Positions 1 to 41,068 of a stretch of DNA of 41,950 nucleotides are shown in pieces. A program made the translations under genes and the position numbers. Origin of the DNA: a bacterium (GTDB taxonomy: Bacteria > UBA9089 > JAHJRX01); the NCBI GenBank assembly GCA_030017825.1, contig JASEGW010000002.1, positions 1 to 41,950 on the forward strand, read 5' to 3'. Each line of letters begins with the position of its first letter. Position 1 is the first letter of the stretch. The notes beneath the pieces were generated by a model that did not search any database, had not been told where the DNA came from, and saw only the letters and a program-made list of their open reading frames with translations.

Positions 1-1660
1 TGGATCCTTATCTTGGATTTTAACCATGATAAGAAGTGGAATTAAATATCCTTTTGGTTATGGATATTGGGGTCCAAATGGTCACGATGGTATTTGGCAT
101 ATAGCTCTTTCCAATAGTTTATCCAGAGGATCATTGGAAAATCCTGTATTTTCAGGAGAGATTTTAAAAAATTATCATTTGGGATTTGATATCATTCTGG
201 CATTTTTACATAAATTAACGAGTATTCAAATTAGTATTTTATATTTTCAGGTTCTACCAGTTATTTTTTCTTTACTGGTAGGTATTTTGGTTTATAAATA
301 TGTGTGTCTTTGGAGAGAGTCTAAAAATGAGGCTTTATGGGCCACCTTTTTTGTTTATTTTGGCTGTGGTTTTGGGTTTATAGTAACTTTTTTGAGAGAT
401 GGTATTTTTACTGGTGAGTCGATGTTTTGGTCACAACAGTCATTTTCTACTTTAGTTAATCCACCGTTTGCACTTTCATTAATTTTTGTACTGTCGGGAC
501 TTATTTTTTTACTTAAATATTTAAAAGATCCAAGTATTAAATACTACTTACTAGCAATAATAATTTTTGGGCTATTAATTCAAATTAAAGCTTACGCTGC
601 AATTTTAATTTTAGGGGGATTATTTTTTGCGAGTATATATACCTTTTTGAAAAGTAAAAACTTTTCCATATTCAAAGTTTTACTTGGTTCATTATTTTTA
701 AACCTATTTTTATACTTATTATTTAAGTCAGATGGTGTAACAAATGTTTTTGTTTGGCAACCATTTTGGTTTTTAGAAACTTTAATGTCCTATTCTGATA
801 GATTTGGTTGGGAAAGATTCTATTCTGCAATGACTACATATAGAATGGGTGAATTATGGCTAAAAGCATCGTTATCTTACGGGATAGCATTTATAATTTT
901 TTTAATTGGAAATATGGGTTTAAGAGTAGTTGGTTTTTTGCTTTTTATTAAAATATTTAAAAATAAAATTAAAATAAATGGATTTTTAGTTTTAATGGTT
1001 TCTATGGTTTTTATAGCTGTATTAATTCCAATGTTTTTTGTTCAAAACGGTACACCATGGAATACTATTCAGTTTTTTTATTATTATTTATTTTTCTTTT
1101 CAATATTTGCAGGAATATCAATAAGTTGGTTAGTGGAAAAATCCAAACCACTAATTAAAACAGTTTCAACATTATTGATTTTAATCTTTATGGTTTTAGG
1201 TGCTTGGTCAACTCTCCAACATTATTTACCAAAATTGCCACAATCAATGGTTTCAAACAAAGAATATGATGCATTAAGCTTTTTAGCTAGTAAACCGATA
1301 GGTGTTGTATTAACATATCCGTTTGATAAATATAAAGCTCGAGAGGCAGAAAATTTTCCACCCAGACCACTTTATTTATATGACTCAACGGCCTATGTTT
1401 CAGCTTTTACAAATAAGCCGGTATTCTTGGAAGACGAGGTAAATTTAAATATAATGGGTTACAGATGGAAAGACAGATTACTTGAGATAGAAAACTGGTA
1501 TAAAGAAAAAGATCAAGTAAAGGCAAGAGATTTTTTGAAAATTAATAATATTACATATGTTTATTGGTTAAAAGGTCAAAGAGCCTTTTTTGGGGAAGGG
1601 CAACTTGGTTTAACTAAAATTTTTGAAAATTCCACTGTAGACATATTCCAGGTCGAATAG
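1..1660 (+). CDS. Polytopic membrane protein, GT-C-like, unassigned family. The 5' end is cut by the window edge. Paralog of 14270..16108.
   Basis: The frame is open from nt 2, with no stop before the ATG at 26. The paralog has about 70 more N-terminal residues before the shared motif, so this gene starts upstream of the window. Shared motifs: GHDGIWHIAL vs GHDSTWHIAL, NPVFSGEILKNYH vs NPIFNGERLLNYH, and C-terminal YVSAF...MGY...LTKIFEN vs LTKFFEN. Many hydrophobic segments. Confidence 0.6.
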   Translation, partial: GSLSWILTMIRSGIKYPFGYGYWGPNGHDGIWHIALSNSLSRGSLENPVFSGEILKNYHLGFDIILAFLHKLTSIQISILYFQVLPVIFSLLVGILVYKYVCLWRESKNEALWATFFVYFGCGFGFIVTFLRDGIFTGESMFWSQQSFSTLVNPPFALSLIFVLSGLIFLLKYLKDPSIKYYLLAIIIFGLLIQIKAYAAILILGGLFFASIYTFLKSKNFSIFKVLLGSLFLNLFLYLLFKSDGVTNVFVWQPFWFLETLMSYSDRFGWERFYSAMTTYRMGELWLKASLSYGIAFIIFLIGNMGLRVVGFLLFIKIFKNKIKINGFLVLMVSMVFIAVLIPMFFVQNGTPWNTIQFFYYYLFFFSIFAGISISWLVEKSKPLIKTVSTLLILIFMVLGAWSTLQHYLPKLPQSMVSNKEYDALSFLASKPIGVVLTYPFDKYKAREAENFPPRPLYLYDSTAYVSAFTNKPVFLEDEVNLNIMGYRWKDRLLEIENWYKEKDQVKARDFLKINNITYVYWLKGQRAFFGEGQLGLTKIFENSTVDIFQVE

Positions 1661-1672
1661 TTACACCTTCTT

Positions 1673-1681
1673 TGGTACAAT
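1673..1681 (+). promoter_or_regulatory. Extended -10-like element TGgTACAAT, 7 nt upstream of the ATG at 1689
   Basis: TGGTACAAT at 1673-1681, then tagggtc, then ATG. No properly spaced SD. Confidence 0.3.
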
Positions 1682-1688
1682 TAGGGTC

Positions 1689-2612
1689 ATGGCTAAGATT
1701 TCTGCGGTAGTTAATACATATAACGAGGAAAAGAAGCTTTCTCGCGCGCTTTCTTCTCTTAAGGGTTTTGCAAGTGAGATTGTGGTTGTTGACATGATGT
1801 CTACGGATAAAACCAGAGAAATTGCCAAAAAGTATAATGCCAGAGTATTTAAACACAGAAAAATAAGTTATGTTGAGCCTGCCAGAAATTTTGCCATAGA
1901 AAAAGCTAAATACGACTGGGTATTTATTCTAGATGCTGATGAAGAGATACCGGATGCGCTAAAGATATATCTTAAAAAGGAAATCAAATCCGCCAACCGT
2001 TGGACTGCCCCTAATTTTTACAGAATTCCCAGAAGGAATATTATTTTTGGCAAATGGATGAAACATGCTGGGTGGTGGCCGGATTACAATATTAGATTTT
2101 TTAAAAGGGGTACGGTTTCTTGGAATGAAATTATTCATTCCGTTCCGGCAACTTCAGGTAAAGGAATAGACATTCCAAGTAACGGAGAATTAGGTATAAA
2201 ACACAGACATTATTCTTCTTTGGAAGAATATATGACCAGAATGAATAGATATACAACTATTCAAGCAAGACAATTGAATAAAAAGGGAGTAGATTTTTCT
2301 TGGAAAGATTTAATAACAAAACCAACAGCAGAATTTTTAAGAAGATATTTTGCAGAGGAAGGTTTTAAGGATGGTTTGCATGGTTTAAACCTTTCTTTAC
2401 TGCAAGCATTTTCGGAAGTTGTTCTTTATTCAAAACTATGGCAAAAGCAAGATTTTAAAAAGCGAAAAATAGATGTTCGAGATGTAGAAGAAACTATCAT
2501 TAAGTCATATAAAGATTTTTCCTGGTGGATAATAACCTCAAAAATTTCAATTTCAACAAAACTCATTAATAAATTATGGTTAAAAATAAAAAGAAAACTA
2601 AAGTATCAATAA
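1689..2612 (+). CDS. GT2 family glycosyltransferase (subfamily shared with 3505..4224 and 22365..23204)
   Basis: N-terminal SAVVNTYNEEKKL, VVVDMMSTDKT and DADEEIP (DxD). Shared block IPRRNIIFGKWMKHAGWWPDYNIRFFKRG. Confidence 0.8.
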   Translation: MAKISAVVNTYNEEKKLSRALSSLKGFASEIVVVDMMSTDKTREIAKKYNARVFKHRKISYVEPARNFAIEKAKYDWVFILDADEEIPDALKIYLKKEIKSANRWTAPNFYRIPRRNIIFGKWMKHAGWWPDYNIRFFKRGTVSWNEIIHSVPATSGKGIDIPSNGELGIKHRHYSSLEEYMTRMNRYTTIQARQLNKKGVDFSWKDLITKPTAEFLRRYFAEEGFKDGLHGLNLSLLQAFSEVVLYSKLWQKQDFKKRKIDVRDVEETIIKSYKDFSWWIITSKISISTKLINKLWLKIKRKLKYQ

Positions 2613-3520
2613 TAATTTTAACTACGAATGCTTTAGTTATGATTAAAGAGCAGCTTCTTAATGTCGCAGAATTAGATTCTGGAAACTTGGATATTGAATG
2701 TTTGGTAGTCGATAATGATTCAGGTGATGGAACTGAAGAAGCAATCAAAAATTACAAACTTCCCAATATGAAATATAAGTTTATTCAAAGTGGAGCCAAC
2801 TTAGGATTTGCTGGAGGGAATAATGTGGGGATTAAAGACTCTATAAAACGAAAAGTTGACCACATTATTTTGATGAATAATGATTTAATTTTACCAAAAG
2901 ATGTTGTTACTAAACTTGTTAAGTATATGAACGAAAATCCAGATGTTGGAATTACTTCTCCAAAAATGTATTTTGCAAAGGGATATGAATTTCATAAAGA
3001 TAGATATACAGATAAGGAAAAGGGAAATGTTATTTGGTATGCCGGTGGAGTATTAGATCGAGAAAATATCTATTCGACTCATAGGGGCGTAGATGAGGTG
3101 GATTGTGGACAATATGAAAGAACTGAAGAAACAGATTTCATAAATGGGGCCTGCGTAATTGTTAGAAGGGAAGTATTTGAAAAAGTTGGACTTTTAGACG
3201 CGTCATTTTTCTTGTATTGGGAAGATGCTGATTTTAGTATGAGAGTTAAAAGAGAAGGATTTAAGGTGATGTATTTTCCTAATACTTGTATGTGGCATAA
3301 AGTATCGGCCTCAACAGGAGGATCAGGAAGCCCTACAAATGATTATTTTTTGACTAGAAACAGATTTACTTTCGCATTAAGATATGCAAAATTAAGAACC
3401 AAGTTTGCAGTTTTTAGAGATACAATAAGGCTTATATTTATTGGTCGCACATGGCAAAAGTGGGGAGCAATTGATGCATTATTAGGAAGGCATGGAATGG
3501 GGCAATGGAAACATCGTTAA
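2576..3520 (+). CDS. GT2 family glycosyltransferase (rhamnosyltransferase-like group)
   Basis: VSIIILTTN, VVDNDSGDGT, GFAGGNNVG, NND, INGACVIVRREVFEKVG, YWEDADFSMRVKREGFKV. Overlaps the upstream gene by 37 nt. The first beta-strand motif requires this start. Confidence 0.85.
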   Translation: MVKNKKKTKVSIIILTTNALVMIKEQLLNVAELDSGNLDIECLVVDNDSGDGTEEAIKNYKLPNMKYKFIQSGANLGFAGGNNVGIKDSIKRKVDHIILMNNDLILPKDVVTKLVKYMNENPDVGITSPKMYFAKGYEFHKDRYTDKEKGNVIWYAGGVLDRENIYSTHRGVDEVDCGQYERTEETDFINGACVIVRREVFEKVGLLDASFFLYWEDADFSMRVKREGFKVMYFPNTCMWHKVSASTGGSGSPTNDYFLTRNRFTFALRYAKLRTKFAVFRDTIRLIFIGRTWQKWGAIDALLGRHGMGQWKHR

Positions 3521-4224
3521 GTGTAATAATATTAATAGGAGAAAAAGTAGATAAGGTTTTATATAAAAAATGTTTAGCTTCAGTTTCTTGGGCTGATGAA
3601 ATAGTTAAGATTGAAACAAAAAATGAAAAAGGGGGCTTTTCGGATTGGAGAAATTTAGGGTTTAAAAAGGCAACTAAAGATTGGATTTTATATATTGATA
3701 CAGATGAAGAAGTAACGAAAGAATTAGAAAGGGAAATAAAAAAGGTTATTAGTAATTCAACAATAAAAAATTCCAGTTATGCAATACCAAGAAAAAATAT
3801 AATTTTCGGAAAAGAATTTAAACATGGGGGGCAATATCCTGATTATCAAAAAAGACTTTTTTTAAAGAAAGATTTTATTAAATGGTTTGGAAATCTTCAT
3901 GAAGAACCAAAATTTAAAGGTAATCTAGGACTTCTTAAAAATCCCATTATCCACCACAAGGACTTAAATATAAATCAAATGTTGGAAAAAACTAATATGT
4001 GGTCTGAAATTGAAGGTCAATTAATGTTTGACACAAATCATCCTCAAATGAATATTATTAGGTTTTTTTCAGCAGGAATAAGAGAATTTTATTTAAGAAT
4101 GATAAAACAAAGGGCCTTTTTAGATGGTGCAAAGGGAGTAATATATGCATTCTATCAAGTGTATAGCAGGTTAATTTCATATTCAAAATTATGGGAAAAG
4201 CAGCAATCTACAACCCGTATCTAG
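3505..4224 (+). CDS. GT2-like protein, a degenerate paralog of 1689..2612
   Basis: Retains DTDEEV and IPRKNIIFGKEFKHGGQYPDYQKRLF and C-terminal YSKLWEKQ. The paralogs' VVD-x-S-x-DKT segment is replaced by IVKIETKNEKGGFSD. Confidence 0.6.
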   Translation: METSLSVIILIGEKVDKVLYKKCLASVSWADEIVKIETKNEKGGFSDWRNLGFKKATKDWILYIDTDEEVTKELEREIKKVISNSTIKNSSYAIPRKNIIFGKEFKHGGQYPDYQKRLFLKKDFIKWFGNLHEEPKFKGNLGLLKNPIIHHKDLNINQMLEKTNMWSEIEGQLMFDTNHPQMNIIRFFSAGIREFYLRMIKQRAFLDGAKGVIYAFYQVYSRLISYSKLWEKQQSTTRI

Positions 4225-5228
4225 ATACCCTTGGGGGGGGAGAAAGGTACACCTTATCTTTTGCTAAAGTTTTAGCAGAAGAGGGTTTTAAGGTAGATAT
4301 ACAATGGAAAGAAAAATCTATAAAAGAAAAAATTCAAGCAAGGTTTGGAATTAAATTGGACGATAGAATTGATTTTATTGATGATATTAAAAGAGGTGAA
4401 AATTATGATACTTGTTTTTGGGTAAGCGATGGAAGTATCCCCACCCTTAGGTCCAGATCTAATTTTATTCATTTTCAAGTTCCGTTTAAAGATGTAGACG
4501 GAAAAACATTGCTTAATAAAATGAAACTTTTTAGAGTTAAAAAAATAATTTGTAATTCGAAATTTACTAAAAAAGTAATCGACAAAGAATACGGAGTTAA
4601 TAGTTTGGTTATTTATCCTCCGGTTGATCTAAGTTCTCTTAAACCCAAAAGAAAAGAAAAAACGATTCTTTATGTTGGCAGATTTTCAAATCTGGTCCAA
4701 AGCAAGAGTCAGGATGTTCTAATTAATTCTTTTAAAAATTTAGTTAAAGAAAAGTTTTTTCAGAATTATAAATTAATTTTAGCCGGAGGAGTTGAGATTG
4801 GAGTTGGAGATTATTTAAATAAATTAAAAAAATCAGCCGGAAATTATAATATTGAATTTATTGAAAGCCCTGATTTTAAAACATTAAAAGAAATATACGG
4901 AAAAGCAAAATTTTTTTGGTCGGCAGCGGGCTTTAATGTAAATGAAATAAATAACCCCGAAAAAGTTGAGCATTTTGGCATAACTTTAATTGAAAGTATG
5001 GCGGCAGGTTGTGTTCCCATTGTGTATAATGCCGGGGGTTACAAGGAAATAATTACCAGTGGAGAAAATGGTTATTTGTGGAAAAATAAGAGAGATTTAA
5101 TAAAGATAACAAAAGAAGTAATTGAAACCTCGGGACTTTATAAAAATATTTCAACAAAAGCCAAAAAGTCTTCCGGTGAATATGATTACGAGGTTTTTAA
5201 AATAAATATATGTCAAATATTAAGTTAA
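4191..5228 (+). CDS. GT4 family glycosyltransferase
   Basis: N-terminal LGGGERY. C-terminal EX7E motif EHFGITLIESMAAGCVPIV. Confidence 0.85.
   Translation: MGKAAIYNPYLDTLGGGERYTLSFAKVLAEEGFKVDIQWKEKSIKEKIQARFGIKLDDRIDFIDDIKRGENYDTCFWVSDGSIPTLRSRSNFIHFQVPFKDVDGKTLLNKMKLFRVKKIICNSKFTKKVIDKEYGVNSLVIYPPVDLSSLKPKRKEKTILYVGRFSNLVQSKSQDVLINSFKNLVKEKFFQNYKLILAGGVEIGVGDYLNKLKKSAGNYNIEFIESPDFKTLKEIYGKAKFFWSAAGFNVNEINNPEKVEHFGITLIESMAAGCVPIVYNAGGYKEIITSGENGYLWKNKRDLIKITKEVIETSGLYKNISTKAKKSSGEYDYEVFKINICQILS
4233..4240 (+). repeat. G8 homopolymeric tract inside codons 15-17 of the GT4 gene
   Basis: ctt ggg ggg gga encodes LGGG. This is the longest G/C run I saw in the window. Confidence 0.9.
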
Positions 5229-5884
5229 ATAAAAATTCAAAAGGAACAAAAGCCGTTGAACTGCATGAACATGTCCCCGCCGATTGGTATTATGAATCTT
5301 TAAGGGTTGATATGTTTCAAAGATTTTGGCATAAAACCAGATTTAGAGAAGTAATTAAAGTGTCTGAAAAAGCAGGGAAGGTGTTAGACATCGGTTGTGC
5401 CGATGGAGTGTTTCCAGAAGTAATATTTGATGCCACAAAGGCAGATTCTTTAATTGGAATTGATGTTATTAAAACTTCAGTAGAATGGGCAAAGAAACAC
5501 TGGAAGAAAAAAAAGAAGATGAAGTTTTCGGTTGGCGATGCTCAAAATTTAAAATTTAAGGCAAATGAGTTTGATGCGGTTTATATAATGGAAGTGTTAG
5601 AACATGTTGAAGATCCCTTAAAAGTTTTGTTGGAAATAAAAAGAGTTTTAAAAAGAGGTGGGTATGGAGTATTTTTAATACCGTCCGATAATGATTTATT
5701 TAAGATAGTATGGTGGTTATGGCTTCATTTTTACCCAAGGGGCTGGGTTTGGAGGGAAACCCATATTCAAACATTTAGGGGTAATTTTCTTCCTTCAGTA
5801 TGCAAAAAAGCCGGTTTTAAAATTGAATTGAACAGGAAATTTAATCTAGGAATGCTACACTTAGTAAAAGTAAGAAAAAAATAA
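5210..5884 (+). CDS. Class I SAM-dependent methyltransferase
   Basis: Motif I VLDIGCADGVF. FDAVYIMEVLEHVEDP. LKRGGYGVFLIP. Confidence 0.8.
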   Translation: MSNIKLNKNSKGTKAVELHEHVPADWYYESLRVDMFQRFWHKTRFREVIKVSEKAGKVLDIGCADGVFPEVIFDATKADSLIGIDVIKTSVEWAKKHWKKKKKMKFSVGDAQNLKFKANEFDAVYIMEVLEHVEDPLKVLLEIKRVLKRGGYGVFLIPSDNDLFKIVWWLWLHFYPRGWVWRETHIQTFRGNFLPSVCKKAGFKIELNRKFNLGMLHLVKVRKK

Positions 5885-5885: not shown

Positions 5886-6776
5886 ATGAAAGTTTCAGTC
5901 GTAATGCCCAGTTTAAACGGTAAAACTATTTTGGAGAAAAATCTTCCGAAACTTCTTATTGCCTCCGAAAACCCGAAAAATAGCATTTGTGAAATTATTA
6001 TCGTTGATGATGGGTCGTGGGATGACAGTGTTTCTTTTTTAAATAATAATTTTAAAGATAAAATTAAACTGATAAAACATACCAAGAACAGGGGATTTTC
6101 AGCCAGTGTTAATATCGGAGTGAGGGCAACTAAGGGAGATTTACTTCTTTTAATTAATATTGATGTTATTCCTGAAGTTGATTTTTTGGAATCTGCTTTA
6201 AAACATTTTAATATTAAAAAAGTTTTTGCGGTTTCACTTCACGAAAAAGGATATGGGTCGGCCAAAAGTTATTTTGGGGATGGATATATTCAAATTGCAA
6301 TGGGCGAAGAAAATGAAAAGACCCATCCAAGTTTTTATGTGAGCGGAGGAAGCGGTCTTTTCAGAAAATCTATTTGGAAAGAATTAGGTGGAATGGATGA
6401 AAAATTACTGTCCCCATTTTATTGGGAAGATATTGATCTTTGCTACAGAGCTTTAAAACGAGGTTATATAAACCTTTGGGACCCAAACGGTAAAGTCCTC
6501 CACCATCACGAATCTACAATTTCAAAATTTCCCAAAAAATATGTCGGAAGAATAAAAGAAAGAAATCAACTTTTAGTTATTTGGAAAAATATTCATAGTA
6601 AATCATTAATTAGAAAACATATCCTAGGTGTTATATCGAGAACTCTTAAACATCCGGGCTATTTAAGGGTTGTGCTTATGGCTTTAATGCGCCTTAAGAT
6701 TGCGATGAAAGCCAGAAAGAAAGAAATTAAGGAAGGAAAAGTTGGTGATGAAGCAATTTTTTCAATGTTTTCATAA
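5886..6776 (+). CDS. GT2 family glycosyltransferase
   Basis: VSVVMPSLN, IIIVDDGSWDDS, NIDV, YWEDIDLCYRALKRGY. Confidence 0.85.
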   Translation: MKVSVVMPSLNGKTILEKNLPKLLIASENPKNSICEIIIVDDGSWDDSVSFLNNNFKDKIKLIKHTKNRGFSASVNIGVRATKGDLLLLINIDVIPEVDFLESALKHFNIKKVFAVSLHEKGYGSAKSYFGDGYIQIAMGEENEKTHPSFYVSGGSGLFRKSIWKELGGMDEKLLSPFYWEDIDLCYRALKRGYINLWDPNGKVLHHHESTISKFPKKYVGRIKERNQLLVIWKNIHSKSLIRKHILGVISRTLKHPGYLRVVLMALMRLKIAMKARKKEIKEGKVGDEAIFSMFS

Positions 6777-7603
6777 TGGAAATAACACTTTCAATAGTAA
6801 TTGTAAATTTAAATACTAAGGATTTAACCGTAAGGTGCATTAGATCAATTCAAAAAGAAACCGGTAATTTATCTTTTGAAGTTTTGCTAACCGATAATGG
6901 GTCAAATGACGGGTCTGTTGAAGCATTTAAAAAAATAAAAAAAGAGGCTTTTTGGAAAGATAGATTTACCTTAATTTTAAATGACAGTAACACTGGTTAT
7001 GGTAAGGCAAATAATCAAGGGATAAGAAGAGCAAAAGGAAGATACCTTTTACTTCTTAATAACGATACGGTGGTTCATAAAGACGCTTTGCAAAATTTGG
7101 TTAAATTTGCCGAAAATACTCCCGATGCGGGAGTTGTTGGCAGTAAACTTTTAAATATTGATGGAACTTTGCAAATGTCCTGTTTTAATTTTCCGACGAT
7201 TACAAACGCCATCAAAGAATATTTTTTTGGCAAGAAGGGATTGTTTGATAAATTTGCCCCGAAGGGAAAGTTACCTGTAACTGTTGATTCAGTTGTTGGG
7301 GCAGTTTTCTTAATTACACCAAAAGCAAGAAGATTGGTTGGAATTTTGGATGAGAGATATTTTGCCTATTTTGAAGATATTGATTATTGCAGACAGGTTT
7401 GGAAAAAAGGTTTAAAGGTTTATTATTTGCCTGGTTCCGTAATTACTCATCACCATGGCGCAACGTTTAAAAAATTGGCAGATGAAAGCGAAAGATGGAA
7501 AAAATTAATTCCATCAAGCAAAATTTATCACGGTTTAATTAAACATTACATAATAAATATGGTTATTTGGTCAGGTCAAAAATGGCAAAAACTCATAAAT
7601 TAA
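6776..7603 (+). CDS. GT2 family glycosyltransferase
   Basis: LSIVIVNLN, LLTDNGSNDGS, GYGKANNQG, NNDT, YFEDIDYCRQVWKKGLKV. TAATG junction with the upstream gene. Confidence 0.85.
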   Translation: MEITLSIVIVNLNTKDLTVRCIRSIQKETGNLSFEVLLTDNGSNDGSVEAFKKIKKEAFWKDRFTLILNDSNTGYGKANNQGIRRAKGRYLLLLNNDTVVHKDALQNLVKFAENTPDAGVVGSKLLNIDGTLQMSCFNFPTITNAIKEYFFGKKGLFDKFAPKGKLPVTVDSVVGAVFLITPKARRLVGILDERYFAYFEDIDYCRQVWKKGLKVYYLPGSVITHHHGATFKKLADESERWKKLIPSSKIYHGLIKHYIINMVIWSGQKWQKLIN

Positions 7604-28014: not shown

Positions 28015-28030
28015 GTTAATATATAACTAT

Positions 28031-31098: not shown

Positions 31099-31430
31099 TT
31101 ATTGGGTTACAAATAACAGGAGCAATATTTGCTCTTTTAATGATTTATCTCTCAATTGTTCATTATAAAAAGGGAAGTTTAAATAGTTTAGAAATTGCCG
31201 TGTGGCTTTCAATTTGGGTACTAGTTATTTTGGTTGTTATCTTTCCTGATATTGTAAGGGCTTATTCAATGAGTTTTTCTGTCTCAAGAGTTTTAGATTT
31301 ATTAATTGCTGGGGGATTTATACTTACCATTACAATGGTAACAAGCGCTTATATTAGGGTTAATAAATTGGAAAGAAAAATGGAAGATTTAATTAGAAAA
31401 TTGGCATTAAAAGATTCTGAAAAGAAATAG
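31095..31430 (+). CDS. DUF2304-like small membrane protein
   Basis: About 111 aa. Three hydrophobic segments, then a charged C-terminal helix (KLERKMEDLIRKLALKD). ATGA-coupled to a GT2 gene, which is the usual DUF2304 context. Confidence 0.6.
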   Translation: MIIGLQITGAIFALLMIYLSIVHYKKGSLNSLEIAVWLSIWVLVILVVIFPDIVRAYSMSFSVSRVLDLLIAGGFILTITMVTSAYIRVNKLERKMEDLIRKLALKDSEKK

Positions 31431-32885: not shown

Positions 32886-33833
32886 ATGGTAAATATGAAA
32901 AGTGATTTTTGGAAAAACAAAAAGGTACTAGTAACTGGCGGAAGAGGTTTTATTGGAACTCATTTGGTGGATAAATTGAAATTTTTAAAACCTAAAGAAC
33001 TAAGGGTTCCAGTCAGAAATGAAGCCAATTTGATGTCGTTTAAAGATTGTTTAAAAATTACAAAAAATATTGATATTGTTATTCATTTAGCTGCCAATAT
33101 TGGAGACGTTAATTATTTAAATTTATATTCGGCTGAAATTTATGATGATAATGTTATAATGAGTTCAAATATAATTAGAGCTTCAATGAGATCAGGTGTC
33201 GAAAAACTAATTAATTTCGGATCTACTTATATTTATCCCAAAAGAGCCAAACTTCCATTATCGGAGGATCAAATATGGAATGGTTTACCTTCTAAGTCGG
33301 GGATGTTTTATGGTTTAGCAAAAAGATCTATTTTGTCGCAAATGCTGGCATATAGAGACCAATATGCTTTTAATTCAATTTTTTTAGTTCCTGTAAACAT
33401 TTATGGTCCTGGGGATAATTTTGATGGTAAAGATAAAAAAGTAATTCCCTCTTTAATAATCAAATTTATCGAATCGCAAAAATATAAGAATAAATCTGTT
33501 AAAATTTGGGGAACTGGCGAGGCCACACGCGATTTTTTATATATCTCTGATTTAATCGATGGTATTATTCTTGTTGCTGAAAAATATAATGAGTCATTAC
33601 CTTTGAATTTGGGTTCTGGCAAAAACATTTCAATAAGCGAACTTGCTTTTTTGTTGAAAAAAATAACTAACTACAAAGGTGAAATTCTATGGGATGATAC
33701 TAAACCAGAAGGTATTCTTAATTCAGAAATTAGTACGGAATTAATTAAGGAAAAAATTGGTTTTAAGGCAAAAGTTTCATTAGTTGAAGGTCTCACAAAT
33801 ACAATTAATTGGTATTTAACTAAATGTTTATAA
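32886..33833 (+). CDS. Divergent Fcl-like SDR (predicted NDP-sugar reductase)
   Basis: VTGGRGFIG, FYGLAK (YxxxK), NIYGPGDNF, IWGTGEATRDFLYISD. It has FGSTYIYP and KKVIPSL where Fcl has GSSCIYP and SHVIPAL. Confidence 0.65.
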   Translation: MVNMKSDFWKNKKVLVTGGRGFIGTHLVDKLKFLKPKELRVPVRNEANLMSFKDCLKITKNIDIVIHLAANIGDVNYLNLYSAEIYDDNVIMSSNIIRASMRSGVEKLINFGSTYIYPKRAKLPLSEDQIWNGLPSKSGMFYGLAKRSILSQMLAYRDQYAFNSIFLVPVNIYGPGDNFDGKDKKVIPSLIIKFIESQKYKNKSVKIWGTGEATRDFLYISDLIDGIILVAEKYNESLPLNLGSGKNISISELAFLLKKITNYKGEILWDDTKPEGILNSEISTELIKEKIGFKAKVSLVEGLTNTINWYLTKCL

Positions 33834-33849: not shown

Positions 33850-34566
33850 TTAAAAAATACTTTTATTTGAATAAGAAATATTTTTATTTATTACTCCTAC
33901 AACTATAGCATTTGAGTAGCTTAATATATGATTGTGTTTTAAGTTTTTTATGTGTTTATATTTAACTTGTTTCCATTGGTTTTTAAAATAAGACCTTTGC
34001 ATAAAATGTAGTTCGGTAAAATATTTAAAATTTTTTGTTAAGCTCAAATCTACAAAGGGGTTGTATCCAAGAGGTACGCTGAAAATAAGCACTCCTTTAT
34101 TTGACAACAGAGATTCTAAGTGTTTAATTGTTTTAAAAAAACAATCATTATTATTTTTACTTTTTTTTGCTGAATATAAATTTTCATTCCATCCTACATG
34201 CTCTAATGTCGAAATACTAATAATTAGATCATATTTAAATTTGGGTTTATAACTAAGAATATCCATGTTTATTATTCCAGTGGAATGATCATATTTATCT
34301 ACAATGTGATAATCTTGGTGAAAGTAATTCCATAAAGTACTTCCTACCTCTAAAATTTTACCTATTTTATATTTGTTTACAATTCTGTTAAATATTGGAA
34401 TTTCAATTGCACGTTCATTAATGAATGTATAATTTCTACGGTTATAAAAATAACAATATTTTTTACTTTGAAAAATAAATGTTTTTTTCCTGTTCTCTAA
34501 ATATTGAATAAATGGAGTTATTAAAAACTTAACAATCGATTTAGAGATACTAATAAAGTTTTTCAT
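33850..34566 (-). CDS. Putative class I methyltransferase-like protein
   Basis: ILEVGS, YDLIISISTLEHVG, LLSNKGVLIFSVP. Overlaps the upstream C-methyltransferase gene by 17 nt. Confidence 0.45.
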   Translation of the reverse strand: MKNFISISKSIVKFLITPFIQYLENRKKTFIFQSKKYCYFYNRRNYTFINERAIEIPIFNRIVNKYKIGKILEVGSTLWNYFHQDYHIVDKYDHSTGIINMDILSYKPKFKYDLIISISTLEHVGWNENLYSAKKSKNNNDCFFKTIKHLESLLSNKGVLIFSVPLGYNPFVDLSLTKNFKYFTELHFMQRSYFKNQWKQVKYKHIKNLKHNHILSYSNAIVVGVINKNISYSNKSIF

Positions 34567-35809
34567 TGTCTACAATTTCAAAATTTGGGAGAGGAAAGAT
34601 CATTTTACCGCCTTTTTGAATATAATTTTTTTCTCTTTCAATAAATTCTTTTTTGAAATGCCATGGCAAGATTAATAGATAATCAGGGCTAAGGGTTCTG
34701 GCCTTTTCTTCTGATATAATTGGTATCAAACTTCCAACGGTTTTTAATCCAAATTTATTTGGGTTTCTTTCAACAGCGGCTTTTATAATTTTATTGTTTA
34801 GTCCATAATATTGTAAAAGGGTATTTCCCTTAGTTGAAGCTCCATAAACATATATTTTTTCCAAGCGAGATTTGTTTTTAAGAAATTTAGTTGTTGTTTT
34901 TTTTAAATCCGCTATTTTTTGAGCAAAATTTTTGTATGCTTCTACAGTATTTACCTTTGTTGCTCTTTCTATTTTTAAAAGATTATTTACTTTTTTAAGA
35001 TCATTCAATGATGGCTTTGGAAACTTTGCATTTTTATGTTTTATGTATATACGAAAACTTCCACCATTTACATTGTTTAATTCAACATTAAATATTTCGA
35101 GATCATTACGTTTCATCAATTTCTCTACAGATTTGAGTGAATAATATTCAATATGTTCGTGACAAATATTATCAAATGCGTTTAACTTTAACATTAATGG
35201 TTGATACGCCATTTGAATTATAAAAAGTCCATCGTTTGCTAATATTTCTGAAATATCACCCACAAACTTATTTGGATCTTCCAAATCGTAAAACATTGCT
35301 ATTGCGGTAATAATTTTTGGTTTATTGAAATCGTATTTCTTGTAGTTCTTGGCACTAAAAAAATCATTAATTATTTTATCAGTTCCAATGACATAATCAC
35401 TTTTGAGATTTTTTGCTGGTTCAAAACCGATTCTTAGTATTTGGTTAGTTTCATATGATCTTAGCAAGGTACCATCATTTGCACCTATATCAAGTACAAC
35501 ATCTCCATCTTTCAGTTTTACAATCTTTTCAGCCTTTAAAGTAATATCTTTTAAGGCCTGTTTCATTGTTGAGTTAATCCCTGATTTATACCAGTAATTT
35601 CTGTAGAGTAAGTCAGGATTAACCCCTTTGTGGGTTAATTGTACAAGTGAACAGTTTTTACACATGGTCAGACCCAAAGGTGCTTTAATTGAATGTTTAT
35701 TACTCTTTACAAAGTCTGATATATAAAGATTTCCGAGATATAAAACATTTATCAGATTGCTAGAATGGCAAACCCTACACGAGTTAATTTTCTTATATAA
35801 TTTATTCAT
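34550..35809 (-). CDS. NDP-hexose C-methyltransferase family protein (TylC3-like architecture)
   Basis: N-terminal Cys4 CRVCHSS...CKNCSLVQL. YRNYWYKSGINSTM. SAM motif VLDIGANDGTL. A long C-terminal domain. Confidence 0.7.
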   Translation of the reverse strand: MNKLYKKINSCRVCHSSNLINVLYLGNLYISDFVKSNKHSIKAPLGLTMCKNCSLVQLTHKGVNPDLLYRNYWYKSGINSTMKQALKDITLKAEKIVKLKDGDVVLDIGANDGTLLRSYETNQILRIGFEPAKNLKSDYVIGTDKIINDFFSAKNYKKYDFNKPKIITAIAMFYDLEDPNKFVGDISEILANDGLFIIQMAYQPLMLKLNAFDNICHEHIEYYSLKSVEKLMKRNDLEIFNVELNNVNGGSFRIYIKHKNAKFPKPSLNDLKKVNNLLKIERATKVNTVEAYKNFAQKIADLKKTTTKFLKNKSRLEKIYVYGASTKGNTLLQYYGLNNKIIKAAVERNPNKFGLKTVGSLIPIISEEKARTLSPDYLLILPWHFKKEFIEREKNYIQKGGKMIFPLPNFEIVDNEKLY

Positions 35810-35890: not shown

Positions 35891-36994
35891 ATGAAAATTA
35901 TATCTGTTACATCAATAAAAGAAAAGGGGGGAATTGGTTTTTACTCTAAACAAATAGTTAGTCATTTATCTAGATTTAAAGATATAAATTTAATAGAAAT
36001 TAATAATCATTCAAAAATACCTAATAATTATGACATACTTCATGTACAACACCATTATTCTTTTTTTGGATTACCCCTACCATTTTTCAATAAATTTAAT
36101 TCTTATCTCAAAAATACAAAACCGATTATTGTTGTTACTATACACGACCTAATAACTAATTCTCCTATTGGGGTACCGAAAGTTTTCTGTGTAGTATTAA
36201 ACTATTTAATTAAAAAATTAAATATTAAGAGTTTTATTGAACCAAATATTAATCATTTTATCATTCATTCACGAAATCAATTATATTTGCTAAATAAAAT
36301 GGGTATTTCTAAAAATAAAATTAGTTTACTTCCAATGGGTGTTCCCTTAAATTCTATCAAAAAAGTTAATTTCTCCCAGATTAGAAAAAAGTGGGATCTT
36401 GAGGGCAAAATTGTATTTTCAATATTGGGGTTTATATTTCGTAGAAAAGGGTATGAAATTGCGCTAAAAGCACTCGAAAGATTAAATGATAAAAATACTG
36501 TATTGGTTATAGCAGGTGATTTTAATCCTAAATCCACAATAGACCGCGATTATAGAAAAAATCTAATTAAATATATTAGAAAGTGTCATCTTGAAGAACA
36601 AGTCGTTATAACTGGATATTTGAGCAATAATGAATTTAAAGACCTAGTATCTGTTACAGATATTATACTTGCCCCTTTTAGGGGAAATTATGGCAGTCCA
36701 TACTCTTTGTCAACAGCTATAGGTTTCGGCAAACCAATAATAGCTTCAGATATTCAGCCTGTATTGGAAATACAAAATAGGATGAATTGTTTGGAAATTT
36801 TTAAGGATGGAAACGATAAAGATTTGGCTAAAAAAATGTCTAAATTGATGAAAGATACAAATTATAGAAAACAGTTGGCAACAAGAGCAAAAAACTATTC
36901 AAAAAAATACAGTTTTGATAAATTGGCTTTACAACACAAAAGGATTTATAATCATTTATTAAGACAGGAGAGATTGTTAAGTAAAAATAAGTAA
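35891..36994 (+). CDS. GT4-like glycosyltransferase with a degenerate EX7E motif
   Basis: GT-B layout (N-terminal GGIGFY, LVIAGD). It has GNYGSPYSLSTAIGFGKPIIAS where E-x7-E is expected. Confidence 0.55.
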   Translation: MKIISVTSIKEKGGIGFYSKQIVSHLSRFKDINLIEINNHSKIPNNYDILHVQHHYSFFGLPLPFFNKFNSYLKNTKPIIVVTIHDLITNSPIGVPKVFCVVLNYLIKKLNIKSFIEPNINHFIIHSRNQLYLLNKMGISKNKISLLPMGVPLNSIKKVNFSQIRKKWDLEGKIVFSILGFIFRRKGYEIALKALERLNDKNTVLVIAGDFNPKSTIDRDYRKNLIKYIRKCHLEEQVVITGYLSNNEFKDLVSVTDIILAPFRGNYGSPYSLSTAIGFGKPIIASDIQPVLEIQNRMNCLEIFKDGNDKDLAKKMSKLMKDTNYRKQLATRAKNYSKKYSFDKLALQHKRIYNHLLRQERLLSKNK

Positions 36995-38580
36995 TACTTG
37001 TCTAAGTTAAATATCTGGATAAAGTCATCAGTGTGATTTATTATCCTATTGGCGTCAAAACCAGGTTCTTCACGATCAAAAAAAATAAATAACTTATCAG
37101 TCTTCTTACTTTCTTTTAATGAACAGAGTCCTGTGATAGTTTCATTGTAAGATAGAGAAGAATTTTTGGCTATAAGATAGGCATTTGTTGAATATTCAGC
37201 CGTGGAATTGTAATAACCAAAGTCTTTATTTCCTTCGGAGATGTATTGTGTTACATAATATTCATAAATTGAAATATTATAATTTGGATTAGCTTGCTTA
37301 AACCAATAAAAATTAATATTGTTTATAAGTATGAGGTCATTTTGGGAAATATATTTCTGTGTCTCTTTGAATATGTTATACGTAGAGATGTTTATAGACG
37401 GCTCTCTTGATAACACTTGAGTTATTTGCTTGGGATACATTGTGATTGCAATTATTGTAAAAATAACAGCAGTTAATAATTTTGTAATGAAAGGTGATTT
37501 GTTAAGGTATGGGACTTTTCTTAAAATAATTTTGGGGATGTTAACTAGAAAATATGATGATAAAATTGCGGTTGGAAAAAAAACATATTGGATAAATCGG
37601 TCATTAAAACCGATTAATCCAGCGGAAGACATCAAGGTTAGACCTAGTGGAATAATTAAAGCTGAAATAATTAAAGATTTTTTGGTAATAACTTTATTTT
37701 TAATAAGTAAAATTATTCCCCCGATTGTAAATAAAATAATTATTGGTGTAACCCATTCAAACAAAATATTGGTAAAAATATTTAATGTGTTAAATATTGT
37801 TTGGGGGTTTTTAAAACTGTTGGAAATGTATTTAAGAAATTTACTAAAGGAATCTACCAACAGTGGTGTTATGTAAAATTCTGGGTCATTTGGACCGGTG
37901 GGGGATTTAAAGAGAAATGGGATGCTTTGGGGAAGTGAAGAAACAACTCCAACCATTATGACAAATGTATAATGAATTAGTGCCTGCGCTTTTTTAGTAG
38001 TAATTAATTTTATTAATCCATCAAATATAAATATGGAAATACCAACGATAGGTGTAAGGGTATGCGACCAAAAAGCAAGGCCTAAAAATATACCTGAGAT
38101 AATAAATTTAAAAATATTTTTTAAATTAAGTGAGATAACAGTGAAAGAGAGAATAACAAATATTTCTGAAATTAAATTATTAAAAAGATCAGTATTTAAT
38201 CGGTAATAAGTTGGGCTAATAAATACCCAAAAAATAGAAAAAATAGCAGTCTTGATGTCGAAATTTTTTTTAGCAAACAAAAACACAATAATTGGGGTGA
38301 CGCCACTCAATACGAGCACTATTATTTTTAAACTTGTTAGTAAATCTATCGAGATGCTCAATGACAATGTGGAAATAATAATTGGTAAAAGCAAAGGTAT
38401 TTGTGTACCTAAAAAACTAAATTGGTGAATTAGTTTATTTGAATAGATTAAATAGTATGGTGAGTCATAACCATATATTAAATAATGTTTTGTGAGGGGA
38501 TATGTGTACAGTAGGAGTAAAAGTAGAACAAAAGCAATAATTACTCCCCCTCTTTTTAATTTTGGTAAATAATTATTCAT
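36952..38580 (-). CDS. Large polytopic membrane protein, possible GT-C-like, with a C-terminal soluble domain
   Basis: First loop YGYDSPYYL. More than 10 hydrophobic segments, then about 150 non-hydrophobic C-terminal residues. Confidence 0.4.
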   Translation of the reverse strand: MNNYLPKLKRGGVIIAFVLLLLLLYTYPLTKHYLIYGYDSPYYLIYSNKLIHQFSFLGTQIPLLLPIIISTLSLSISIDLLTSLKIIVLVLSGVTPIIVFLFAKKNFDIKTAIFSIFWVFISPTYYRLNTDLFNNLISEIFVILSFTVISLNLKNIFKFIISGIFLGLAFWSHTLTPIVGISIFIFDGLIKLITTKKAQALIHYTFVIMVGVVSSLPQSIPFLFKSPTGPNDPEFYITPLLVDSFSKFLKYISNSFKNPQTIFNTLNIFTNILFEWVTPIIILFTIGGIILLIKNKVITKKSLIISALIIPLGLTLMSSAGLIGFNDRFIQYVFFPTAILSSYFLVNIPKIILRKVPYLNKSPFITKLLTAVIFTIIAITMYPKQITQVLSREPSINISTYNIFKETQKYISQNDLILINNINFYWFKQANPNYNISIYEYYVTQYISEGNKDFGYYNSTAEYSTNAYLIAKNSSLSYNETITGLCSLKESKKTDKLFIFFDREEPGFDANRIINHTDDFIQIFNLDKYYLFLLNNLSCLNK

Positions 38581-38651: not shown

Positions 38652-39299
38652 ATGTCATATTTTAAAAAAAATGCAAAATATTTTGAGACAATATTTCTTT
38701 TTTCCTTTGTTCTATATATATTAATGTTGTTGGTGGAGGGTTTTACTTGGAAAGGTGTTTTTTTTAAACATCTACATTTTTACCCAATATATTTTTTGGT
38801 GATCTCAGTTATTTCTGGGGTAGTTACCTTTAATAATTTGAAGCGGGGAGAAAAAATGACTAATAAGTATAAAAAGACTATTTTTTGGGTTTCTAAAATA
38901 ACTCCATGGGTATTTTGTTTATATATATTGACGATTTTGCTACAGCCCTTAGTTTTAGATTGGTTAATCAATAGAGGAATCCTTAGGTGGGATTGGATGA
39001 AAGACTCGTTAGGGAACATCCTTACCCTTTTGATTATTTTTTGGGTAATAAATATTAATAACAACTCTAAATTAAATGTATTAAGAAAAAAATATAATAT
39101 ATACTATTTTAGTTTTTTTGGTAATAAAAAAATCAAGATTTCATCAAATATTTACAAAGCAATTTTATTTCTTTTTCTTTTTGTTATTCTTATAAGTAAT
39201 TTTAGCTTTTTTAGTTTTATACCCATAATTGTCGCTGTCCTTTCTTCTTTACTATTGGTTTTTTTGAATGATTTGTTAATTAACGATCAATATGAATGA
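38652..39299 (+). CDS. Hypothetical multi-pass membrane protein
   Basis: 215 aa with 5-6 hydrophobic segments. No motif recognised. Confidence 0.4.
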   Translation: MSYFKKNAKYFETIFLFSFVLYILMLLVEGFTWKGVFFKHLHFYPIYFLVISVISGVVTFNNLKRGEKMTNKYKKTIFWVSKITPWVFCLYILTILLQPLVLDWLINRGILRWDWMKDSLGNILTLLIIFWVININNNSKLNVLRKKYNIYYFSFFGNKKIKISSNIYKAILFLFLFVILISNFSFFSFIPIIVAVLSSLLLVFLNDLLINDQYE

Positions 39300-39583
39300 T
39301 AAAAAAATTTATTTACATGTTTTTTTGTAATCACTTTCAGGTTTTATTTTTGATTATTTTGTGTGTCTTTGTACAGTTTTTCAATTTGGAAAATACAAAA
39401 TGCTTATATTAAGAAATACTTTCTCTAAATAAAGACCTAAAAGAAACAATTAAAAACTTACATTTTAATTTGTATTATTTTGTTAATTATAATCAGGATA
39501 TAATTATTGCTGAATATTTCTTTGATAGAAACGAAATAAAACAATTAATAATAGACTAAAACGAGCAGATAATTAGTCATTGA

Positions 39584-39592
39584 TGTTACAAT
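39584..39592 (+). promoter_or_regulatory. Extended -10 TGtTACAAT, 6 nt upstream of the ATG at 39599
   Basis: gaTGtTACAATaataatATG. Confidence 0.35.
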
Positions 39593-39598
39593 AATAAT

Positions 39599-41068
39599 AT
39601 GTTTTTAGAATATCTTTCTTTTTCCGACACTGCTAAATTTGCTTTGATTGCTAAAAATATAGTTTTAGGAAACGGTTTTACCACAGATTTTAGTTTTTGG
39701 GGTAATAATTTGTTTTCTACATATGGTGTGTTACCTTTTTTTAGTTGTATTCTAAGTATTTTTTTTAAATTTTTTGGAATAGGAAATTTCAGTATTTTTC
39801 TTGTTTCTTTTACTTTTTTTATTTCAACTTTTATATTAATTTTTTTATTAACAAAAAAATTAACAAGGAATAGTTTAATTGCGTTTTTATCTTCCATCGT
39901 TTTTCTATTTAATAATGATATGATCGAATATGTCAAAAATGGAGCTAGCGAAAATCTCTTTATTTTTCAAATTTTATTAGGAATCTATTTAATTTTATTT
40001 AAAAATAGATGGACAAAAATAGGGGCTTTTTTAGTAATTATTTTAATATATTTTACTCGACCCCAAGCCTTTATTTATATATTAGGAATTATTTTTTTTT
40101 ATTTATTAACTATTCTAAAAATAAAAAAATCTTTAATTTATTTTGGTGGTGTAATTATTATGTGTTTTCTAATTGATTTTTTTATTTTATCCATTATAAA
40201 CGGAAAACATTTTTTGTATTCAATTACAGCAAGAGGTATTAATGCGACAATTAGTCATTTGCCTAATTTTTCTGTATCGGATAGTTTACGAGGAAACATT
40301 ATTTTTGATATTGGTTTTTTGAGTGTATTTAAAAAAGTTTTATATAATCTATATAATTTTTACAAGGCTATTCCTGAAATAATGAATCCATATCTATTTG
40401 GATTATTTGTTATTGGTTTATTTGCTTGGGGTAAAGATAGATTGCAAAACAGTTTTAAAATTTCAGTTATTTTTATGACACTGGCAACCTTTTTAGTAAC
40501 AGCACTTACAATTCCTTTCTATAGGTATCTCCATCCTGTTGTTCCGCTTGTTTATATCGTTGGTGTGGCCACACTTGTTGATATTTTTAAAGACCACAAA
40601 TACAAAATTATTATTTCTTATTTCTTAATTCTTATTTTCACTGTGGGGCAGACTTTAGGAATAATATTTTTAGATTCTAGGTTTAAAGCAAAATTGGTTA
40701 ATAAAGACAAACCTCCAATATATGCAGTTATGTCTTTTAAACTAAAAGAAATTACAAAACCTGATGATGTTATAGTTACCAATCTTGATACATGGGGGAG
40801 CTGGTATGGAAAAAGAAAAACAATTTGGTTTCCATTAGAACCTTCAATGATTATTCCTGTTGAAGATAAAATAGATGCAATTTATTTAACCAACTATTTA
40901 ATTGATGATGAAAACTACTATATGGGTGAAAATTGGAGAGAGATATTTAATAATCCAGAAAATCAAACGATATTAAAGGATTATAAATATGTTGGAGAAT
41001 ACGAGTTTAAAGCAGAAGACAATTATGAAAAAGAAAATGGTAAGGCAATACTTCTTGTAAGAAATTGA
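39599..41068 (+). CDS. ArnT/PMT_2-like GT-C membrane protein, apparently lacking the usual first TM helix
   Basis: It starts directly at the first-loop-type motif FSDTAKFALIAKNIVLGNGF. YFTRPQAF. Multiple TM segments. C-terminal soluble domain. Confidence 0.5.
   Translation: MFLEYLSFSDTAKFALIAKNIVLGNGFTTDFSFWGNNLFSTYGVLPFFSCILSIFFKFFGIGNFSIFLVSFTFFISTFILIFLLTKKLTRNSLIAFLSSIVFLFNNDMIEYVKNGASENLFIFQILLGIYLILFKNRWTKIGAFLVIILIYFTRPQAFIYILGIIFFYLLTILKIKKSLIYFGGVIIMCFLIDFFILSIINGKHFLYSITARGINATISHLPNFSVSDSLRGNIIFDIGFLSVFKKVLYNLYNFYKAIPEIMNPYLFGLFVIGLFAWGKDRLQNSFKISVIFMTLATFLVTALTIPFYRYLHPVVPLVYIVGVATLVDIFKDHKYKIIISYFLILIFTVGQTLGIIFLDSRFKAKLVNKDKPPIYAVMSFKLKEITKPDDVIVTNLDTWGSWYGKRKTIWFPLEPSMIIPVEDKIDAIYLTNYLIDDENYYMGENWREIFNNPENQTILKDYKYVGEYEFKAEDNYEKENGKAILLVRN

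Follow-up and report, generated by a model that had tools for sequence, protein, structure and literature searches.

A conserved Microgenomates island of GT-C glycosyltransferases that may assemble a complex surface glycan

In mycobacteria and corynebacteria, lipomannan (LM), lipoarabinomannan (LAM) and arabinogalactan are assembled by a series of GT-C glycosyltransferases that act on the outer face of the membrane (PimE, MptA-C, EmbA-C, AftA-D and Rv3779) and are fed with polyprenyl-phosphate sugars made by GT2 enzymes (Ppm1, PpgS/Rv3632). In LM and LAM synthesis, PpgS (Rv3631) is paired with a small membrane protein, Rv3632, and with the GT-C Rv3779 (PMC3485146). The GtrABC, ArnC/ArnT and Streptococcus mutans Pgf (PgfS, PgfM1/PgfM2) systems also set a GT2 polyprenyl-phosphate sugar synthase beside a downstream GT-C and add one or two sugars with one or two GT-Cs. 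In the N-glycan pathway of eukaryotes and archaea (ALG3/9/12/6/8/10, Dpm1/Alg5, STT3/AglB), soluble glycosyltransferases, a flippase and elongation by polyprenyl-phosphate-dependent GT-Cs lead up to an oligosaccharyltransferase (OST), and the Campylobacter Pgl system is a bacterial lipid-linked oligosaccharide (LLO) pathway that ends in a GT-C, PglB. Here we analyse the 41,950-bp contig JASEGW010000002.1 (taken whole, and hereafter called the window), in which 13 of about 40 genes encode large polytopic membrane proteins of GT-C type.

Members of the candidate phyla radiation (CPR, or Patescibacteria) have genomes of about 1 Mb from which most biosynthetic pathways are missing, and to our knowledge almost nothing is known of their envelope chemistry. 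The source of the window is, from its sequence relationships, a Microgenomates (CPR) bacterium; assemblies that carry homologues of one of its GT-C families, here called family A, are labelled 'Candidatus Woesebacteria', 'Microgenomates' or 'Patescibacteria'. Judged by the gene order of relatives, a larger conserved island extends to both sides of the window, which forms its central 41 kb. The layout of this island joins the ingredients of Wzx-dependent LLO assembly with those of decoration by polyprenyl-phosphate sugars, from which we infer a hybrid route that builds a complex cell-surface glycan and is conserved in Woesebacteria, Daviesbacteria and relatives; we give this reading a probability of roughly 60%.

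The GT-C proteins and the OST-like fold of family A

The window is AT-rich (GC 24–33% over 2-kb windows) and densely packed, with 34 open reading frames (ORFs) of at least 150 aa and six smaller ORFs that have family matches; a search of it for tRNA genes and Rfam families found none. Its left edge cuts gene 1 about 20 codons past the start (orthologs are ~570 aa long). A first-pass annotation of the sequence had described 13 large polytopic proteins with an acidic first-loop motif, several of them with a C-terminal soluble domain, and had put their combined length at about 20.1 kb or 48% of the window. Our analysis agrees on each point. All 13 ORFs are present at the positions given there and, apart from the contig-truncated gene 1, are intact, the one refinement being that the ATG at 26819 lies 9 nt inside an ORF that starts with TTG at 26810. 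Their lengths total 20,065 nt (47.8% of 41,950), a Kyte-Doolittle scan, which is a crude measure, gave 6–11 hydrophobic segments per protein in all 13, and C-terminal soluble domains occur in families A, B and C as defined below.

BLASTP sorted the proteins into three families and a few singletons. Family A comprises gene 1 (1..1660, +) and 14270..16108 (–), which share 30% identity. Family B (28–37% identity) consists of 7607..9271, 9256..10854 and 10833..12506, and family C (26–37% identity) of 16145..17602, 17599..19209, 19265..20911 and 20911..22362, with 39599..41068 as a distant relative; all of these are on the forward strand. The singletons are 12503..13723 (+), 26810..27958 (+) and 36952..38580 (–).

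Four proteins score above the Pfam threshold for PMT_2, namely 10833 of family B (PF13231, E 1e-7) and 17599 (E 8e-15), 19265 (PMT_2 7e-9, PMT 2e-8) and 20911 (1e-6) of family C, and 12503 does so for GT87 (PF09594, E 4e-7), which makes it PimE-like. The matches of 7607, 9256 and 16145 are sub-threshold, yet these proteins are BLASTP paralogues of above-threshold members (E 1e-27 to 1e-111). The first of them, a PTPS_related/PMT_2-like protein (PF10131, E 9e-6) with a C-terminal extracytoplasmic domain and a terminal transmembrane segment, is 29–37% identical to 9256 and 10833, and the last, ArnT/PMT-like as is its family (PMT_2, E 2e-4), is a paralogue of 19265 at E 2e-52; 9256 is placed by its paralogy and its first-loop motif. 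The 26810 protein has no direct Pfam match and matches NF046093 weakly; a 54%-identical ortholog carries PF04188, which suggests a PIG-V/GT76-like enzyme. The protein at 36952 is a divergent PMT_2-like GT-C (E 4e-5, sub-threshold) in a variable part of the island, with no homologue in the 84 related loci described below. That at 39599 is ArnT-like (PMT_2, 2e-3); precomputed annotation places PF13231 in 113 of 120 listed homologues, and several databases name these GT39 or ArnT-like. Ten of the 13 thus appear ArnT/PMT-like or GT87 by profile or paralogy, one is PIG-V-like and two form family A.

Comparison of profiles extended these links. Aligned with hhalign to the profile of family C, which is PMT_2-like, the profile of family B gave 96% probability, and family A and 36952 each gave 94% (E 1e-7). 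The PIG-V-like and GT87 proteins did not align significantly with family C, so their assignment depends on Pfam and orthology. Against PDB sequences, the family C profile reached ArnT (5EZM, E 3e-6) and STT3 (E 0.01), and the family A and B profiles had no match; single-sequence PDB searches with 17599, 12503 and 36952 returned nothing useful. Each group carries its own acidic motif in the first loop: DD in family B, DE in family C, HxD in GT87 (91/91 homologues), N[FY]DG in the PIG-V-like protein (10/10 sequences), FSDxAK in the 39599 type and GHD in family A. These motifs are conserved in at least 81% of homologues, mostly in 93–100%; 36952 has YD at the equivalent place, seen in this single sequence. 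On these grounds we classify all 13 polytopic proteins as GT-C glycosyltransferases, as the first-pass annotation had proposed with transporters as the stated alternative. For family A, where Foldseek on predicted structures speaks to that alternative, transporter matches had a probability below 0.25 and a TM-score below 0.2.

Sequence comparison also supports the view that, for most of the 13, the characterised members of the family take polyprenyl-phosphate sugars as donors outside the membrane. PpgS/ArnC-like GT2 genes in the same island (below) suggest that the GT-Cs of the island would likewise draw on lipid-phosphate-sugar donors on the outer face.

The 39599 subfamily (P0242-P0360) differs from the others in topology. 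Its FSDxAK motif starts within the first 12 residues in ~80% of the 120 listed homologues, and the first transmembrane segment is mostly missing, which implies an extracytoplasmic N-terminus, unusual for GT-C enzymes.

Family A is an orphan at the level of sequence. Neither paralogue type, which we call the m2 type (gene 1, whose orthologs are 52–82% identical) and the m14270 type, had a Pfam, NCBIfam or PDB-sequence match, profile searches included. The family is nevertheless large (1,634 clusters at 50% identity, E <= 1e-3), and the m14270 type is highly conserved, with 63–86% full-length identity across 119 other listed clusters. AlphaFold predicted both types with good scores (pLDDT 84.8 for the m14270 type and 86.4 for the m2 type, the latter from the 82%-identical ortholog P0122; pTM 0.88) and with ~12–14 membrane helices. 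OST catalytic subunits are the best Foldseek matches of both, over full-length alignments, and GT-C enzymes are the only high-probability matches. STT3 fills the ten best places for the m2 type (E 2e-9 to 9e-8, TMq 0.55-0.58), ahead of DPY19, AglB, PglB and AftA, the last at rank 21; for the m14270 type STT3, PglB and AglB (E ~2e-7) are joined by AftA, which has the top TM-score (0.53), and then by ArnT, so that its fold may be called OST/AftA-like. The C-terminal domain has a weak resemblance to the globular domain of AglB-S2 (TMt 0.45-0.57), and the first extracytoplasmic helix begins at the invariant GHD. The models thus point to family A as a real GT-C family with OST-like architecture and not a member of GT66 by sequence. 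A role with a monosaccharide donor is left open by the models, given the likeness to AftA, DPY19 and ArnT.

We also looked for the WWDYG motif of OSTs, and the two paralogue types do not share it. By eye, against OST sequences, IWDWFD of the m14270 type possibly stands at a comparable place, and the m2 type has LYLYD/ES; both types conserve only the downstream part of this candidate motif, a Y followed by near-invariant T, V, S and A.

Further variation within the family lies outside the window. In Daviesbacteria and other Microgenomates (L038-L083, e.g. L057:6471-7853) the Wzx-coupled family A protein is ~1,100 aa long, with an extra N-terminal extracytoplasmic domain of ~470 aa. This domain of m2-type proteins has many invariant residues and a weak similarity to DUF3863 and PDB 3LM3 (E 1e-3 to 0.07), which we take to be a glycoside-hydrolase/deacetylase-like fold and have not used as strong evidence; no such domain occurs in the window. 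A single 1,639-aa protein (P0398) fuses Wzx, the extra domain and family A.

A 195-aa protein (13729..14316, +), with one N-terminal transmembrane segment, an extracytoplasmic domain and no family match, could be an accessory subunit of family A. It is 87% identical to its ortholog in the closest related locus (L001) and adjoins the m14270-type gene in 39/86 cases, in Woesebacteria and Daviesbacteria loci alike, and in the window the two genes converge and share 47 nt at their 3' ends. On the other side of this family A gene, only 36 bp (16109-16144) separate it from the divergent first gene of family C, scant space for two promoters.

Conservation of the island and its coupling to Wzx

To place the window in context, we used 84 loci from Woesebacteria, Daviesbacteria and other Microgenomates genomes, the genes of which were classified with jackhmmer seeds from the window. 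Of these loci, 61 exceed 20 kb in length, and in them the ±10 kb around a family A gene, a span of ~22 kb, holds a median of 10 GT-C genes (range 4-13). The density of GT-C genes, which the first-pass annotation had thought unusual from the window (13 of ~40 genes), is therefore not a matter of chance. If A, B and C denote the GT-C families, 2 a GT2, 7 a GT87, s the 195-aa protein and W a Wzx, the recurrent order is 2-CCCC-A-s-7-BBB-A-W in Woesebacteria and BBB-W-A-A-C in Daviesbacteria.

The same island is found on two long contigs, where gene order is kept and positional orthologs are 54–87% identical. The GT-Cs of the window are 54–87% identical to their positional orthologs in L001 and 28–41% identical to their own neighbours (gene 1, 36952 and 39599 fall outside the L001 locus). 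Because identity between orthologs exceeds that between neighbours, the paralogues would be old and specialised and not recent copies. The island of one relative extends over at least 65 kb and holds at least 22 GT-C-like genes. Among the genes of the 84 loci that were left unclassified, the largest cluster looks like GT4 by sequence motif and the next like a short-chain dehydrogenase.

Content does vary around this scaffold. L001 has extra GT-Cs of 540 and 394 aa, L003 has a second GT87, and the tailoring cassette changes from two Fcl-like enzymes with a C-methyltransferase in the window to FdtA with a DegT aminotransferase in L085. The change of cassette, of the kind seen in O-antigen loci, suggests strain-level variation of the glycan on a conserved scaffold.

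Several island-bearing GTDB representative records, L078 among the loci concerned, are titled 'uncultured Gammaproteobacteria bacterium' and one 'Bathyarchaeia archaeon'; gene order suggests that such titles are placeholders or belong to mis-binned contigs.

Within the window there is no gene for a WecA/WbaP-type transferase, Wzx, Wzy, ABC exporter, sugar nucleotidyltransferase or Gmd, in line with the first-pass annotation. The further claim that flipping is missing probably reflects only where the contig was cut. In the two closest relatives with long contigs, a gene for a 488-490-aa Polysacc_synt protein (Wzx/MOP) shares 4 nt with the start of the gene-1 ortholog, and across the 84 loci a Wzx gene lies directly upstream, on the same strand, of 43/54 interior m2-type genes with a median overlap of 4 nt. 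In these relatives the operon runs from Wzx and family A through three GT2s, a GT4, a methyltransferase and two GT2s to the family B genes and GT87. Beyond the left Wzx lie three further PMT_2 genes. A small GT2 stands immediately before two of these, and the small GT2s score best to ArnC, PgfS, AglJ, PpgS and Dol-P hexose transferases. On the right, two relatives have a second Wzx 1.3-3 kb past the 39599 ortholog, preceded by a GtrC-like gene and followed by more GT2, PMT_2 and GT4 genes; a Fic gene is also found in the right flank of relatives, and L085, one of the two, repeats the PMT_2 - NYN(-) order of the right end of the window. The first-pass annotation had named a complete Wzx/Wzy or ABC pathway just outside the window as evidence against its view, and of these components Wzx is there in relatives, and no Wzy, ABC exporter or initiator appears within ±10 kb in the 84 loci. 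Phosphoglycosyltransferase, Wzy_C, O-antigen polymerase and Wzz genes were likewise found neither in the window nor among the recurrent clusters of the 84 loci nor in L004-L006 and L085.

Cytoplasmic glycosyltransferases, donor synthesis and other genes

The GT-C genes are interleaved with 7 GT2, 4 GT4, 2 Fcl-like and 3 methyltransferase genes, one of the last a weak match; the first-pass counts are the same. Eleven cytoplasmic GT2/GT4 enzymes are encoded in all, arranged as in a Wzx-dependent operon. Downstream of gene 1 come GT2 genes at 1689..2612 (PF00535, E 1e-19) and 2576..3520 (E 3e-18), a GT2-like gene with a partial domain match at 3505..4224 (PF00535, E 1e-6, 29.3 bits against a cut-off of 23.3), a GT4 at 4191..5228 (PF00534, E 6e-24), an S-adenosylmethionine (SAM)-dependent methyltransferase at 5210..5884 (PF08241, E 2.5e-22) and two further GT2s at 5886..6776 (PF00535, E 4e-20) and 6776..7603 (E 5e-26), all on the forward strand. 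The GT2 at 22365..23204 (+; PF00535, E 2e-18), with a predicted transmembrane segment at residue 227 near its C-terminus, is of a type found at the end of the four family C genes in almost every Woesebacteria locus, where the order 2CCCC recurs, and may be a polyprenyl-phosphate sugar synthase with a role in lipid-linked chemistry. The other GT4 genes are at 25849..26832 (PF00534, E 9e-23), 31691..32833 (PF00534 and PF13439) and 35891..36994 (PF00534, E 8e-23), all forward.

By finding no initiation step, the first-pass annotation overlooked a donor-forming one at 30430-31430. The GT2 at 30430..31098 (+) matches PpgS (NF058614, E 1e-30, residues 3-212 of 222), AglJ (1e-25) and Dol-P hexose transferase (3e-11), all below the equivalog cut-offs, and is a predicted PpgS/Dpm1-like polyprenyl-phosphate sugar synthase; directly downstream is a DUF2304 small membrane protein (31080..31430, +; PF10066, E 5e-19), the partner of the PpgS-like enzyme, in an arrangement like that of Rv3631/Rv3632. 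Genes likely to act on nucleoside-diphosphate (NDP) sugars lie nearby: two Fcl-like epimerase/reductases at 29492..30433 (+; NF047922, E 1.5e-86, full length, below the equivalog cut-off) and 32886..33833 (+; NF047922, E 4e-69), an NDP-hexose C-methyltransferase-like protein with Methyltransf_13/23/14 domains at 34550..35809 (–; PF08484, E 1.5e-45) and, beside it, a putative methyltransferase with a weak, sub-threshold match at 33850..34566 (–; PF13489, E 6.5e-4). A short-chain dehydrogenase at 24185..24895 (+; PF00106, E 5e-48) has a counterpart at the same position in L001.

Toxin-antitoxin and defence-like genes are inserted in the island at two places (window 23238-25861 and 27995-29272). 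They encode a Phd-like antitoxin (23238-23468), an MNT nucleotidyltransferase with HEPN (23489-24188), an AbiEii toxin with a DUF6922 protein (24892-25861, –) and an AAA_14/DUF4143 ATPase (27995-29272). The first three modules are missing at the same position in L001, the closest relative; the ATPase position falls outside that locus. Towards the right end are a 215-aa protein with four transmembrane segments and no family match (38652..39299, +) and, directly after the last GT-C, an NYN-domain gene (within 41131-41950, –) that holds the same position in L085; the last ~460 bp contain no convincing ORF before the contig ends.

A hybrid route, its alternatives and known systems

A model that unites these data would run as follows. 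In the cytoplasm, the two Fcl-like enzymes, the C-methyltransferase, the SAM methyltransferases and the short-chain dehydrogenase would, by family membership, make unusual 6-deoxy or methylated NDP-sugars. The 7 GT2 and 4 GT4 enzymes would assemble an oligosaccharide on a polyprenyl carrier, the initiating phosphoglycosyltransferase being presumably encoded elsewhere, and the polyprenyl-linked intermediate would be flipped by the Wzx/MOP flippase that synteny in relatives shows to be translationally coupled to the first gene. The two family A proteins, given their modelled fold, may then transfer or polymerise the flipped lipid-linked glycan onto an acceptor, which could be a surface or S-layer protein, a pilin, a lipoglycan or a wall polymer. 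The PpgS-like GT2 with DUF2304, and ArnC-like GT2s elsewhere in the island, would load single sugars onto polyprenyl phosphate, and the 11 other GT-Cs (three of family B, four of family C, the GT87, the PIG-V-like protein, 36952 and 39599) would then extend the glycan outside the membrane by one defined residue each, an assembly line like that of mycobacterial LM, LAM and arabinogalactan synthesis or of the luminal ALG enzymes in eukaryotic N-glycosylation. Most Microgenomates keep a mevalonate pathway syntenic with a cis-prenyltransferase, a source of carrier lipid (PMC6107057), which fits a heavy use of such carriers. A bolder version, which we regard as doubtful, is that Microgenomates have an LLO pathway in the style of eukaryotes and archaea, in which Wzx flipping and GT-C elongation are followed by en bloc transfer to surface proteins by family A, a new bacterial type of OST.

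Several points weigh against the hybrid route. What is known of it here comes from genes, synteny and predicted models. The OST-like similarity of family A is moderate (TM 0.47-0.58, root-mean-square deviation 8-14 Å), the WWDYG motif is absent, and AftA, DPY19 and ArnT, which use monosaccharide donors, match as well; because profiles also link family A remotely to the ArnT/PMT-like set, its fold does not establish an OST-type donor. Neither the window nor the recurrent clusters within ±10 kb in the 84 loci contain an initiating phosphoglycosyltransferase, a Wzy or an ABC exporter, and for this reason the LLO is an assumption of the model. The Wzx genes are placed from relatives, since the source contig ends before those positions, and MOP flippases can carry other lipid-linked substrates. 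The triple fusion in P0398, one sequence on one 8.8-kb contig, is weak support.

Two alternatives do without an OST-like step. The first-pass annotation favoured stepwise extracytoplasmic decoration of an envelope protein or polymer over an O-antigen or capsule route; taken strictly, the GT-Cs would add single sugars from polyprenyl-phosphate sugars, with no LLO, flippase or en bloc transfer. Assembly by outer-face GT-Cs stands, in that 11/13 belong to families whose known members use polyprenyl-phosphate monosaccharides and a PpgS-like synthase is present in the window, and the resemblance of family A to DPY19, AftA and ArnT, like the missing phosphoglycosyltransferase, Wzy and ABC exporter, suits such a scheme. 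A system without a flippase is not supported: Wzx overlaps the start of the gene-1 ortholog in relatives (linkage 43/54), a second Wzx follows past the right end, and the 11 cytoplasmic GT2/GT4 genes of the same operons would have no role, all of which makes the strict version decidedly unlikely. It is also unlikely, if somewhat less so, that the island makes a wall polysaccharide or lipoglycan of mycobacterial type, a polymer and not a glycoprotein, in which the GT-Cs would extend a lipid- or peptidoglycan-linked primer into a long, branched heteropolysaccharide, Wzx would export this primer only and family A would be an AftA/Emb-like priming or elongating enzyme that uses polyprenyl-phosphate sugars. 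LM and LAM are a precedent (PMC3485146), GT87/PimE-like and PIG-V-like enzymes are at hand, and AftA has the top TM-score (0.53) for the m14270-type model. The Wzx-coupled m2 type, however, has STT3 in all of its top 10 Foldseek matches and AftA in 21st place, and no LCP ligases or ABC exporter were seen near the 84 loci. The N-terminal domain that the m2 type carries in many lineages would suggest polysaccharide handling if the fold is the one we take it to be, but its similarity to DUF3863 is weak (E 1e-3 to 0.07).

The number of GT-Cs could also overstate the number of functional steps, if many of them were redundant or decaying duplicates in a fast-evolving surface-variation locus. Gene content indeed differs among relatives (L001, L003 and L085), and toxin-antitoxin genes have been inserted in the window. 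Against this, all 13 ORFs are intact and keep their loop-1 motif, positional orthologs are 54–87% identical, gene order is kept from Woesebacteria to Daviesbacteria and family A is 63–86% identical across many genomes, and we consider this explanation highly improbable. The hybrid route is the reading that we prefer.

The island, at more than 40 kb (at least 65 kb in one relative), would occupy roughly 4-6% of a 1-Mb genome, and ~60% of its genes encode glycosyltransferases and a third of its genes GT-C enzymes. That so large an island is kept in so small a genome points to a surface glycan that is central to the biology of these cells, with possible roles in host attachment, phage evasion or envelope integrity. 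If the LLO/OST version were true, a heavily glycosylated surface would be a core trait of ultra-small, probably host-attached cells. Ordered and conserved GT-C paralogues would amount to a compact extracytoplasmic assembly line for glycans outside Actinobacteria and the eukaryotic endoplasmic reticulum, and family A, which is large, unannotated and OST-like in fold and keeps its genetic link to Wzx across relatives, is a concrete candidate for expression and assay. In the part of the literature that we covered, we found no published link of Patescibacteria or Microgenomates to GT-C enzymes or OSTs and no description of the island or of family A, both of which appear to be undescribed.

Among known systems, the mycobacterial and corynebacterial one shares with the island the apparent logic of serial outer-face GT-Cs fed by GT2-made polyprenyl-phosphate sugars, the presence of a GT87 and the placing of a small membrane protein after a PpgS-like GT2. 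Here, however, the GT-Cs are clustered in one island whereas those of mycobacteria are scattered, and the sequences are only remotely related; the island is coupled to Wzx and not to ABC-type export, and it belongs to a genome of ~1 Mb and a cell with no mycolate envelope. The N-glycan pathway is similar in its inferred order of soluble glycosyltransferases, flippase, polyprenyl-phosphate-dependent GT-C elongation and a GT-C of OST-like fold, and also in its PIG-V-like and Dpm1-like enzymes, but the island has no STT3 Pfam match, no WWDYG motif and no Alg7/WecA-type initiator that we could find, and an asparagine target is not implied. Campylobacter Pgl is comparable as a bacterial LLO pathway, if that is what the island encodes, ending in a GT-C, and PglB is among the Foldseek matches (E 7e-7 to 1e-5); Pgl differs in having an ABC-type flippase (PglK), a single GT-C and no extracytoplasmic elongation, and family A has no detectable sequence similarity to PglB. 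The pairing of a GT2 synthase with a downstream GT-C in GtrABC, ArnC/ArnT and Pgf recurs in the island, on a different scale: one or two GT-Cs in those systems, 13 in the window and at least 22 in one relative.

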